A DNA stretch of 64,000 bases. Origin: Deinococcales bacterium (GTDB taxonomy: Bacteria; Deinococcota; Deinococci; Deinococcales; JAAFIG01). Made by a program: the position numbers and the translations under genes. Location of the stretch: positions 148,345 to 212,344 of the forward strand of contig JANXTZ010000044.1 in assembly GCA_025352125.1 (NCBI GenBank), given 5' to 3'. Of the stretch, positions 8,219-43,063 are shown in pieces (position 1 is the stretch's first letter; each line of letters begins with the position of its first letter). The notes beneath the pieces are model-generated. The model worked only from the letters and a program-made list of their open reading frames with translations, did not search any database and was not told where the DNA came from.

Positions 8219-8821
8219 TTGATTCGTGTGATCCTCGCCGAAGACCAAGCCCTGGTTCGCGGCGCACTTTCTGCACTGCTCGAGCTTGAGGACGACATTG
8301 AAGTGATCTTCCAAGCCCAGAACGGTCTTGAAGCGCTCGAACAAACCCAAAGACTTCAACCCGATGTGCTCCTGACCGATATTGAAATGCCCAAAATGAC
8401 GGGCTTGGAACTCGCGCTCGAGGTCAAAAAACAAAACCTCAAAACCAAAGTGGTGATCGTCACCACCTTCGCTCGAGCAGGGTACTTGCGGCGTGCACTC
8501 GAGGCTGGGGCGACAGGATACTTGTTAAAGGATGCACCCGCCGACGACCTTGCCGACGCCGTGCGCCGCGTTCATGCGGGCGCTCGAGCGATAGACCCGA
8601 CGCTGGCGCTTGAAGCCTGGAGCGAAGCCGACCCACTGACCGACCGTGAACGCCAGGTGCTGCGGTTTGCAAGTGAGGGTCAGAGCAGTCTCGAGATTGC
8701 TGGCAGCCTGAAACTTTCTGAAGGCACAATCCGAAATTATTTATCCGAAGCGATTGCCAAACTTGGTGCGAACAACCGCGTTGAAGCGGCGCGGATTGCC
8801 AGAGAAAAAGGTTGGTTGTAG
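8219..8821 (+). CDS. Response regulator, NarL/LuxR family
   Basis: REC domain (VILAEDQ...LLTDIEMPKMTG) plus LuxR HTH (LTDRERQVLRFASEGQSSLEIAGSLKLSEGTIRNYLSEA). Confidence 0.9.
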   Translation: MIRVILAEDQALVRGALSALLELEDDIEVIFQAQNGLEALEQTQRLQPDVLLTDIEMPKMTGLELALEVKKQNLKTKVVIVTTFARAGYLRRALEAGATGYLLKDAPADDLADAVRRVHAGARAIDPTLALEAWSEADPLTDRERQVLRFASEGQSSLEIAGSLKLSEGTIRNYLSEAIAKLGANNRVEAARIAREKGWL

Positions 8822-8875
8822 GGTGCGCCCCGTGCACTAAGGACGCGTGAATGACGGTGCACAAGGCGCATCCTA
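8819..8875. other. Nested hairpin immediately after the response-regulator stop codon
   Basis: Outer stem TAGGGTGCGCC / GGCGCATCCTA (11 bp, one G-T pair). Inner stem GTGCAC / GTGCAC. The 19-nt loop TAAGGACGCGTGAATGACG loosely resembles the loop of the 37-nt repeat family. Confidence 0.35.
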
Positions 8876-8950
8876 CACAATTGTTGTGGTTTCTCGAGAG
8901 GTGGTATTTCCTGATTGTGAAACTTGAATACCACCGAATACTTTTCCATT

Positions 8951-9142
8951 GCGCCTATAGCTCAATGGTTAGAGCACCAATCTTCTTGACCATAAAACGT
9001 ACCTGTCTTGATCTTGATCCCAAACATGCACCTGATGGGCGGGATCGCTGACGGGCAAGGTCGCTTGTTGACCATAAAACGCACCTGACGGGCATGGTCG
9101 CTTCTAAATTGGCGCATACGGGTTCGAGTCCCGTTAGGCACA
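8951..9142 (+). tRNA. tRNA-Arg(TCT) gene interrupted by a 119-nt insert in the anticodon loop (possible pseudogene or intron-bearing gene)
   Basis: Hand fold after removing 8984-9102. Acceptor GCGCCTA/TAGGCAC has one C2-A71 mismatch. D arm GCTC-AATGGTTA-GAGC. Anticodon stem CCAAT/ATTGG with loop CT|TCTAA. Variable loop CGCAT. T arm ACGGG-TTCGAGT-CCCGT. Discriminator A. No encoded CCA. Confidence 0.7.
8984..9102 (+). repeat. Three copies of a ~37-nt hairpin repeat, one nested inside another, forming the tRNA insert
   Basis: Copy a is 8984-9005 plus 9050-9065 and is split by copy b, 9012-9049 (stem GATCCC/GGGATC). Copy c is 9066-9102 (stem GACCAT/ATGGTC). The consensus is TCTTG-stem-AAAACGCACCTGACGGGC-stem-CGCT. 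Confidence 0.8.
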
Positions 9143-9225
9143 TCAACTTTTAAAGCCCAACTTTCAACAAATACTTTGCATTGAACTCGAGATCGGCTTT
9201 TGTAGAATTCGGGTACGATGAATTT

Positions 9226-9654
9226 ATGAAACGTGGCATTGCGCACATGGCTTTGGTCGTTCGTGATTACGATGAAGCCATCGCTTTTTACACGCAGAAA
9301 CTTGGCTTTGTGGTGCTCGAGGACACGTACCAGCCCGCCCAGGACAAACGCTGGGTGGTGATCGCGCCAGCCGAATCTTGCGGCGCGACCTTGTTGCTGG
9401 CTCGAGCCTCCACACCAGAGCAGGAAGCATTTATTGGTCATCAGGCTGGTGGTCGGGTTTTCTTGTTTCTCGCCACCGATGATTTTTGGCGCGATTACCG
9501 AGGGTTTCTTGCCAAGGGAATACAATTTGTGCGTGAACCCAAGACCGATGATTACGGCACGGTTGCGGTCTTCAAAGATTTGTACGGCAACCTTTGGGAT
9601 TTGCTCGAGTTTGGTATGGATCACCCAATGCGGAAAAGGTTGGAAATTTTTTAA
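9226..9654 (+). CDS. VOC-family (glyoxalase/bleomycin-resistance/dioxygenase fold) protein
   Basis: MKRGIAHMALVVRDYDEAIAFYTQKLGF... and C-terminal FKDLYGNLWDLLE are typical of the family. The ATG at 9226 is preferred over the TTG at 9181. Confidence 0.8.
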   Translation: MKRGIAHMALVVRDYDEAIAFYTQKLGFVVLEDTYQPAQDKRWVVIAPAESCGATLLLARASTPEQEAFIGHQAGGRVFLFLATDDFWRDYRGFLAKGIQFVREPKTDDYGTVAVFKDLYGNLWDLLEFGMDHPMRKRLEIF

Positions 9655-43001: not shown

Positions 43002-43063
43002 CCCTTCTCCCGTCTTGACCATAAAACGCACCTGCGGGCATGGTCGCAACATCGGGAGAAGGG
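43002..43063. repeat. Composite hairpin: 11-bp perfect stem (CCCTTCTCCCG/CGGGAGAAGGG) whose loop carries one copy of the 37-nt repeat (43013-43049)
   Basis: Read directly. The inner sequence TCTTGACCATAAAACGCACCTGCGGGCATGGTCGC matches the tRNA-insert copies. Confidence 0.8.

Follow-up and report, generated by a model that had tools for sequence, protein, structure and literature searches.

A probable tRNA-Ile(UAU) pseudogene interrupted by 37-nt hairpin repeats in uncultured Deinococcales

The interrupted tRNA gene and its orthologues

The window analysed here, a 64-kb stretch of DNA from a member of the Deinococcales, carries at 8951-9142 of its forward strand a tRNA gene whose anticodon loop is interrupted by 119 nucleotides (nt) composed of 37-nt hairpin units. 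The gene lies directly after a NarL/DesR-type response regulator gene (8219-8821); an ABC transporter and a histidine kinase are encoded on the upstream side of the regulator, and a glyoxalase-fold gene and a transglutaminase gene lie on the downstream side of the tRNA. The Rfam tRNA model RF00005 spans the gene end to end with 45.7 bits, against a gathering score of 29, aligning model positions 1-71 and handling about 120 nt as an anticodon-loop insertion. ARAGORN in its default mode reported no tRNA in the 64-kb window and, with introns allowed, called a tRNA(tct) with a 119-nt intron over the same interval. The split tRNA is real, well beyond chance. A fold of this kind had been proposed from the letters alone (the original prediction); the covariance model upholds it, and the stems, the loop CT-TCT-AA and the C2-A71 mismatch that it listed are all present (Table 1). 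In predicted folds the insert forms a plain bulged hairpin, and a unit folds by itself, leaving the acceptor, D and T arms undisturbed.

The insert consists of a unit (A) with a second unit (B) nested in its apical loop, followed in tandem by a third (C). Three copies of a hairpin repeat had been proposed; the hairpin units stand, but they are not set side by side. The stem of unit A has one mismatch (AAGGTC for ATGGTC), and its leader TTC lies at 8983-8985. A leader TC (9006-9007) precedes the TTGATC duplication in front of unit B, and the spacer TTG before unit C (9065-9067) is a variant of TTC. The nested A/B pair recurs in loci L019, L046, L062 and L059 (L numbers designate loci from other assemblies), and unit C is identical to the lone unit of alleles L209 and L211. 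The 20-mer TTGACCATAAAAYGYACCTG from the insert recurs once in the window, at 43015, within the only other copy there, whose host hairpin is formed by CCCTTCTCCC (43002-43011) and GGGAGAAGGG (43054-43063). An empty version of this CCCTTCTCCC...GGGAGAAGGG hairpin is found in L040, L022 and L086.

Since CTTCT is repeated at the two ends of the insert, placements from 8983-9101 through 8987-9105 are equivalent, and the junction can be set anywhere from 8982/8983 to 8986/8987. The ambiguity of a few nt that the original prediction allowed for is thus confirmed, but the rule seen at other insertion sites (below) favours placement at 8983-9101, between C32 and U33, over the U33/U34 junction that it preferred. 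Its reading of CTTCT as a 5-bp target duplication does not hold: alleles with a single unit repeat only CTT, and other sites repeat 0-3 nt. The two extra bases can be attributed to the TTC leader of the unit together with an A35-to-C change in the tRNA.

Table 1. Coordinates of the split tRNA, its alleles and the 37-nt units. A caret marks the point of insertion.
Feature	Position or loci	Strand	Basis or remark
tRNA 5' part	8951..8983	+	RF00005 alignment, ARAGORN with introns, sequence
Acceptor 5' strand	8951-8957	+	part of tRNA 5' part
D arm	8960-8975	+	part of tRNA 5' part
Anticodon-stem 5' strand CCAAT	8977-8981	+	C32 U33 at 8982-8983
Insert in anticodon loop, 119 nt	8984..9102	+	RF00005, ARAGORN; empty allele L212; filled/empty pairs
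Unit A (outer, GACCAT family)	8986..9064	+	5' half TTGACCATAAAACGTACCTG, 3' half CGGGCAAGGTCGC, split by nested unit B
TTGATC, 6-nt duplication of unit B start	9008..9013	+	sequence; comparison with nested units elsewhere, e.g. L019
Unit B (GATCCC/GGGATC family)	9014..9048	+	in unit A apical loop
Unit C (GACCAT family, intact hairpin)	9068..9101	+	tandem after unit A
tRNA 3' part	9103..9142	+	sequence, RF00005, orthologue comparison
Anticodon TCT	9103-9105	+	TAT in orthologues with intact exons; followed by A37 A38
Anticodon-stem 3' strand ATTGG	9108-9112	+	followed by variable loop CGCAT
T arm	9118-9134	+	in tRNA 3' part
Acceptor 3' strand	9135-9141	+	A71 (9140) opposes C2 (8952); discriminator A at 9142
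Sole other window copy, GTC + GACCAT-family unit	43012..43047	+	in hairpin loop
Uninterrupted alleles, five lineages	L001, L196, L198/199, L210, L212		RF00005 76-80 bits
Single 37-nt unit, same loop position, exons perfect; four lineages, nine contigs	L002/003, L197, L200-203, L209, L211		RF00005 61.7-62.4 bits
Multi-unit alleles, anticodon TCT	window and near-twin L195		RF00005 45.7 bits
Multi-unit alleles (two or three tandem units), anticodon TCT	L204/L206/L207		no RF00005 hit at E<=0.01
RF04354 antisense match	L212:2752-2825	-
RF04354 antisense match	L210:2745-2818	-
RF04354 antisense match	window 9081-9143	-
Filled/empty junctions	GC^TGTC, TC^TCCC, CC^TCGT, GC^TTGC, AC^TCGC, GC^TTCG, CC^AACA
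tRNA junction	AATC^TTATAA		C32^U33

Syntenic contigs from other metagenomes were collected through regulator homologues at 90-99% identity; a separate metagenome scan with the window's regulator gave, among the matches listed, relatives at about 70% from other taxa and one locus at 80% that has no tRNA. The tRNA follows the NarL-type regulator in all relatives, and every allele with recognisable, intact exons is a tRNA-Ile(TAT), a decoder of AUA. The uninterrupted allele that the original prediction had sought is present in five lineages. The locus offers an unusually clean natural series: empty, one unit, several units with decay, and wreck. Multi-unit alleles with the anticodon TCT make up two lineages, the window's included; in L204 and L207 damage extends to every stem (D, T, acceptor and anticodon). 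Neighbouring genes vary by lineage, with a CHRD gene in L204-208 and a nucleotidyltransferase gene in L212; in one lineage a PIN-domain/AF2212-like pair (likely a toxin-antitoxin system) and a 517-aa open reading frame (ORF) lie between the regulator and the tRNA (L196:3129-3756, L197:2228-2449).

We compared the tRNA bodies, defined as the 57 positions outside the anticodon stem-loop. Among all non-window alleles the body differs at 0-2 of 57 positions; regulator third codon positions differ by 22-41% between lineages, and the 70 nt upstream of the tRNA by roughly 6-23%. The window tRNA differs from its orthologues at 5-6 of the 57 positions, a level comparable to that of the upstream flank. 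Its changes comprise the G71A mismatch, two variable-loop changes, the A35-to-C change and TCA at 9143-9145 where the orthologues encode CCA. The gene can thus no longer be called canonical with the acceptor mismatch as its sole blemish. Together, these comparisons indicate decay of the tRNA in both multi-unit lineages.

Judged by synteny and sequence, the window copy appears to be a tRNA-Ile(UAU) by descent only, its anticodon having been lost to TCT. The single A35-to-C change turned TAT into TCT in an already disabled gene and so produces a false tRNA-Arg(TCT) label. The original prediction took that label at face value, and a genuine tRNA-Arg(UCU), the cell's AGA decoder, struck by the element would indeed leave a loop reading CT-TCT-AA once the insert is removed and would agree with the ARAGORN call and with the use of AGA (4.6 per 1000 codons in the window, where AUA stands at 3.8). 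However, every syntenic orthologue that has kept its exons intact is a tRNA-Ile(tat), its body identical to that of the window tRNA at 51-52 of 57 positions, and the sole other TCT allele, that of the L204/L207 lineage, is a wreck. Arginine identity depends on A20 and C35, A20 being a major element in E. coli. Position 20 of the window tRNA is U (D loop AAUGGUUA), and C35 is owed to a change found in the decayed alleles alone. A related metagenome-assembled genome (MAG) holds an unrelated, intact tRNA-Arg(tct) (L032), to which the window tRNA shows no resemblance. An arginine decoder at this locus is barely credible. The gene is instead an annotation trap: a standard tRNA finder misses it, and an intron-tolerant one names a dead tRNA-Ile(UAU) as tRNA-Arg.

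The antisense strand of the tRNA-Ile(TAT) alleles matches the Rfam family RF04354 ("Plastid-ycf2 5'UTR RNA") with up to 64.4 bits, against a gathering score of 65.7. From plastid gene order, we take this family to cover antisense plastid trnI-CAU; if it does, the body of the tRNA-Ile(UAU) would be Ile2-like. RF04354 may also cross-hit bacterial Ile2-type tRNAs.

Empty sites exist for both stem backgrounds that bear the insert, L212 against L209, L211, L002 and L197 for CCAAT/ATTGG and L198 against L200-203 for TCAGT/GCTGA. Two pairs, L196 with L197 and L209 with L210, have identical regulator proteins and different insert states; the anticodon stems within each pair also differ, which suggests allele replacement by recombination. 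A homing-like co-conversion of the anticodon stem was considered as well, since the first interrupted alleles all shared CCAAT/ATTGG, and was dropped as a necessity in view of the interrupted TCAGT/GCTGA alleles (L200-203) and the empty CCAAT/ATTGG allele (L212). L196 and L197 still call for allele replacement through recombination.

The 37-nt repeat family and its insertion sites

A seed-pattern scan of one genome per species returned more than 111 stretches, of which nearly all, among the matches listed, lie in five uncultured Deinococcales MAGs. We parsed 0.69 Mb from these five MAGs by pairing 5' and 3' halves through arm complementarity, which yielded 270 units compared with 3 in shuffled DNA. 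The unit has the architecture (T/G)TC, TTG, a 5-7-nt arm, AAAnn(n)GCACCT, a 1-3-nt loop, CGGGC, the complementary arm and CGC. The family is dispersed and mostly intergenic in this clade: 177 of 201 outermost units lie outside long ORFs, though long ORFs make up 75% of the DNA. Viral contigs yielded no copies of the unit. In the 20 loci where units are surrounded by the longest non-coding stretches, no Rfam family attained its gathering score and no further invaded RNA gene was seen.

Unit lengths cluster at 33-38, about 72, about 110, about 146 and about 186 nt, in steps of about 37 nt. Specifically, 66 units enclose one to four others, nesting reaches five layers, and nested units go in by single-unit steps, always between CACCT and CGGGC of the host. 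The arms covary. Among 91 unique motif-defined units outside the GACCAT family, a set on which no pairing requirement was imposed, there are 22 different arm sequences, and 70% of the units form at least 5 contiguous Watson-Crick pairs, against 7% after arms are swapped between units. Every one of the 141 unique simple units passing the arm-complementarity filter has a T-G wobble at its foot, and this wobble pairs solely on the strand shown. The same 141 units all carry the leader (T/G)TC followed by TTG; none has a GTAG tag, and CGTC occurs only where the flank supplies the C. The element is far smaller than the usual mobile DNA; it picks hairpin loops and nests in itself, and it exists in more than 20 stem variants with compensating changes that keep the loop-proximal motif.

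To reconstruct insertion sites, each outermost unit or tandem run was removed and the rejoined flanks were folded. At 12% of sites, compared with 1.4% of random positions, the reconstructed junction lay within the apical loop of a hairpin with 8 bp or more, the preferred position being the 5' side of the loop. Host hairpins were mainly GTAG-type palindromes of the repetitive extragenic palindromic (REP) class, the CCCTTCTCCC hairpin and similar repeats; about a quarter of the units lie in loops of their own kind, in addition to the 12%. The related MAG loci contain many GTAG-type REPs (GTAGGGGCGCTGC..., GGGTGAACC...), and the 37-nt unit is often found inside them. A REPIN-like GTAG palindrome, GTAGGGTGCGCC...GGCGCATCCTAC, also lies just upstream of the window tRNA, at 8818-8876, where it overlaps the stop codon of the regulator.

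In filled/empty pairs the inserted piece is always NTC-TTG...CGC, 37 nt long. Across eight such pairs the break follows C in 8/8 and precedes T in 7/8 (Table 1), and the CCAATCTTATAAATTGG stem-loop provides an example of a hairpin with C^T in its loop. Read from the sequences of these pairs, insertion takes place at the DNA level and by whole units, and it appears to be directed at C^T in hairpin loops. Junction ambiguity varies by site between 0 and 3 nt, so that there is no fixed target duplication. Insertion recreates C^T at both ends, which would explain the tandem arrays of strict 37-nt period in L009, L064, L059 and L207.

The same arrays, together with L204 and L207, which stand one unit apart on an identical background as slippage can yield, might instead suggest that the units are immobile, the insert having grown in place by replication slippage or unequal recombination and its likeness to sequences elsewhere being due to a functional motif in common, for instance a terminator hairpin or one that binds a protein. 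Slippage cannot account for the first copy inside the tRNA loop, the nesting of different stem families in each other's loops and the precise filled/empty pairs at unrelated hairpins. As a general account it is very unlikely; it is contradicted for first insertions and plausible for changes of copy number within arrays.

The position C32-U33, one base into the hairpin loop, is common in tRNA anticodon loops. With introns allowed, ARAGORN found none of 28 other tRNA genes in element-bearing Deinococcales loci to be interrupted. L032 (CAXTTL010000157, a related Deinococcales MAG) holds an array of 22 tRNA genes (L032:1827-5563, reverse strand) that includes the intact tRNA-Arg(tct) mentioned above. 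One 37-nt unit lies in the tRNA-Asn/tRNA-Tyr spacer of L032, where it is harmless. Most simply, the 28 uninterrupted tRNAs and the spacer unit would mean that a tRNA hit by the element loses its function, so that only insertions into dispensable tRNAs persist.

Disruption of the tRNA and competing explanations

Together, these observations make it probable that an accessory tRNA-Ile(UAU) of Ile2 type has become a pseudogene at 8951-9142, a non-coding hairpin element of 37 nt having disrupted its anticodon loop at the DNA level. Presence/absence and copy-number polymorphism among close relatives points to recent activity of this element. The loss would be tolerated if a tRNA-Ile2(CAU), made by TilS and encoded elsewhere in the genome, decodes AUA as well. 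Some bacteria keep tRNA-Ile(TAT) alongside tilS and so read AUA redundantly (PMC3575796), which fits a gene that can be lost. On this account, a redundant AUA decoder would have been gained, interrupted and lost within one clade. The original prediction had offered, as one of two readings, that a miniature element targeting hairpin loops had killed the tRNA; its identity of the tRNA aside, this agrees with a unit that is dispersed, nested, partial to hairpin loops and polymorphic at this site.

The unit would be moved in trans by a hairpin-recognising enzyme of HUH/Y1 type acting on single-stranded or extruded DNA, a candidate akin in its action to the REP-associated transposases and cutting at C^T. 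Several points weigh against the explanation as a whole. A tblastn search of the 1.1 Mb of fetched DNA with an IS608 TnpA sequence found nothing (tblastn and blastp matches only at E>3), and clustering of ORFs near units gave no recurrent transposase-like family; the clusters consisted of ABC transporters, kinases and regulators. The tag of classical REPs, GTAG or CGTC, is missing from the unit. No strand bias was detected relative to GC skew (73 against 73) or to gene orientation, and a mechanism using single-stranded DNA at replication forks might predict one. In the window's genome, tilS, tRNA-Ile2(CAU) and a real tRNA-Arg(UCU) are assumed. Finally, the single-unit alleles occur in four lineages whose regulator third positions are 22-32% apart and have perfectly intact exons, which would fit a functional, processed tRNA too.

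The second reading of the original prediction builds on that possibility: the 37-nt hairpin would be a small bacterial tRNA intervening sequence, transcribed, cut from the anticodon loop and followed by re-ligation of the halves, for example by an RtcB-type ligase. Nine single-unit contigs of four lineages show 0/57 body differences, and their anticodon stems change in a compensatory manner (CCAAT/ATTGG, TCAGT/GCTGA). The unit is invariably in sense orientation in these tRNAs, its predicted fold would leave the acceptor, D and T arms whole, and about half of the sampled lineages carry an insert. However, recent insertion or recombinational spread explains the intact exons equally well (L196/L197, L209/L210). 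No more than 2 bases separate any two of the single-unit inserts, and a rare loop variant is common to L197 and L202, which come from one sample; this could likewise mean recent spread. The unit is an ordinary intergenic DNA repeat, nested at the DNA level, and its absence from the 28 other tRNA genes is as expected if insertion is lethal in essential tRNAs. Apart from the tRNA-related matches given above, no ribozyme or known RNA family matches 8800-9300 (Rfam, E<=1). The predicted folds contain no bulge-helix-bulge and the position is non-canonical. The multi-unit alleles are decaying, that of the window among them, with exons changing about as fast as the neutral flank and a sister TCT allele unrecognisable as a tRNA, and for the window copy removal from a transcript is accordingly unsupported. 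We judge the intervening-sequence explanation unlikely. For the single-unit alleles in particular, there is a small chance of either RNA removal or precise DNA excision; for the window copy, next to none.

A broader version of this idea deserves a low but appreciable weight. The single-unit insert may be reversible, either by DNA excision, which would make it an on/off switch of an AUA decoder, or by removal from the transcript, and the unit may represent an undescribed class of structure-targeting mobile DNA. Either route would explain flawless exons in four diverged lineages, and were transcript removal true, this would be the first non-group-I bacterial tRNA intervening sequence.

Comparison with known systems and additional observations

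Considering all comparisons, pseudogene formation by a DNA element remains our preferred explanation, and the element is best viewed as REP-like in kind and would resemble a RAYT substrate in its working. Like REPs and REPINs, the unit is an imperfect, bulged hairpin of 20-40 nt, present in high copy, extragenic and found in tandem or composite arrangements. RAYT (TnpA-REP, an HUH Y1 enzyme) binds the bulged REP hairpin and cuts single-stranded DNA between C and T on either side (PMC3479197); the 37-nt units similarly appear to be bounded by, and inserted at, C^T. REPs inside small palindromes are on record (PMC3733652), and the genomes that bear the element also hold classical GTAG-tagged REPs. 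The differences are that the conserved 5' leader (T/G)TC-TTG stands in place of the GTAG/CGTC 5' foot that otherwise marks REPs, that the units are not inverted doublets, that at least 22 stem variants coexist around a conserved upper hairpin, that units nest systematically in apical loops, to five layers, and that neither tblastn on the 1.1 Mb of fetched loci nor the ORF families beside units revealed a RAYT gene. REP-like spread is directly testable here, with a 37-nt substrate, the C^T junction rule and the tRNA loop as a defined target. Literature searches within one library turned up no description of REP-like units inside the anticodon loop of a tRNA.

The small dispersed repeats (SDR) of the Nostocaceae are reportedly "very small mobile repeated elements" of 21-27 nt (Elhai et al. 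2008, Genome Res 18:1484; cited in PMC3116915). They too are mobile non-coding repeats below 40 nt with presence/absence at orthologous sites, nesting, hairpin potential and no known enzyme; they differ in phylum, in their unrelated sequence and in being shorter than the 37-nt unit. To our knowledge, neither insertion into a tRNA anticodon loop nor a C^T hairpin-loop rule has been described for SDRs.

The "peel and paste" single-stranded DNA transposons of the IS200/IS605 group (IS608, ISDra2) and their non-autonomous derivatives share hairpin-defined ends, the lack of a target duplication and a short adjacent target, and they excise precisely; such excision would allow restoration of the tRNA. 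They differ in having two different subterminal hairpins and a 4-5-nt target, compared with a single 34-nt hairpin and a 3-nt leader here, and no replication-strand bias was detected for the 37-nt units. Miniature inverted-repeat transposable elements, at 70-300 bp, are longer than 37 nt, and the unit shows no consistent duplication and no parent insertion sequence. Palindromic repeats such as REPs and Rickettsia palindromic elements (RPE) insert inside functional genes and can persist there (PMC3733652). The 37-nt unit resembles RPEs as a palindromic repeat landing inside a gene; RPEs, in contrast, are about 100-150 bp long, lie mainly in frame in protein genes and are tolerated in the product, whereas the unit targets the functional loop of an RNA gene, the older alleles of which decay.

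Group I tRNA introns likewise interrupt bacterial tRNA anticodon loops, in sense orientation and polymorphic among relatives. With a P1-P9 core, U at -1, G at omega and a length of about 200 nt upwards, they are self-splicing ribozymes, in contrast to an insert of 119 nt made of generic 37-nt repeat units. Membership in this class had already been dismissed in the original prediction, and the lack of any Intron_gpI match within the searched interval bears this out. Protein-spliced tRNA introns of archaea and eukaryotes usually lie at position 37/38 within a bulge-helix-bulge; here the insert lies at 32/33 to 33/34, and the predicted folds lack that motif.

Several further observations were made along the way. 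On L135, an unrelated metagenome contig found through a regulator homologue of about 70%, a tRNA-Cys(gca) interrupted at position 40 by 192 nt is called by ARAGORN (L135:3799-4088, reverse strand); the call may be false, or the insertion may be a group I intron. A composite repeat of larger size is shared by L008, L026, L029, L039, L044, L083 and L093 (e.g. L026:6040-6300), with the layout …TTGACGC..CTCTCACTTCTATGCAAGGCGC ^ TGTCTGTTGC.ACTCCC..GGTCGCCAATGTTCGACGC ^ TTCGCGTCAAACATTG… in which the 37-nt unit has several fixed hot spots; this repeat is possibly a further non-coding element in its own right, or else the terminal part of a longer one. The palindrome CTCGAG is over-represented across the whole window (e.g. 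8893-8898, 9186-9191) and in related loci, with 436 strand matches in the window (218 sites, one per about 290 bp) compared with about 11 in dinucleotide-preserving shuffles, an excess that resembles cyanobacterial HIP1.

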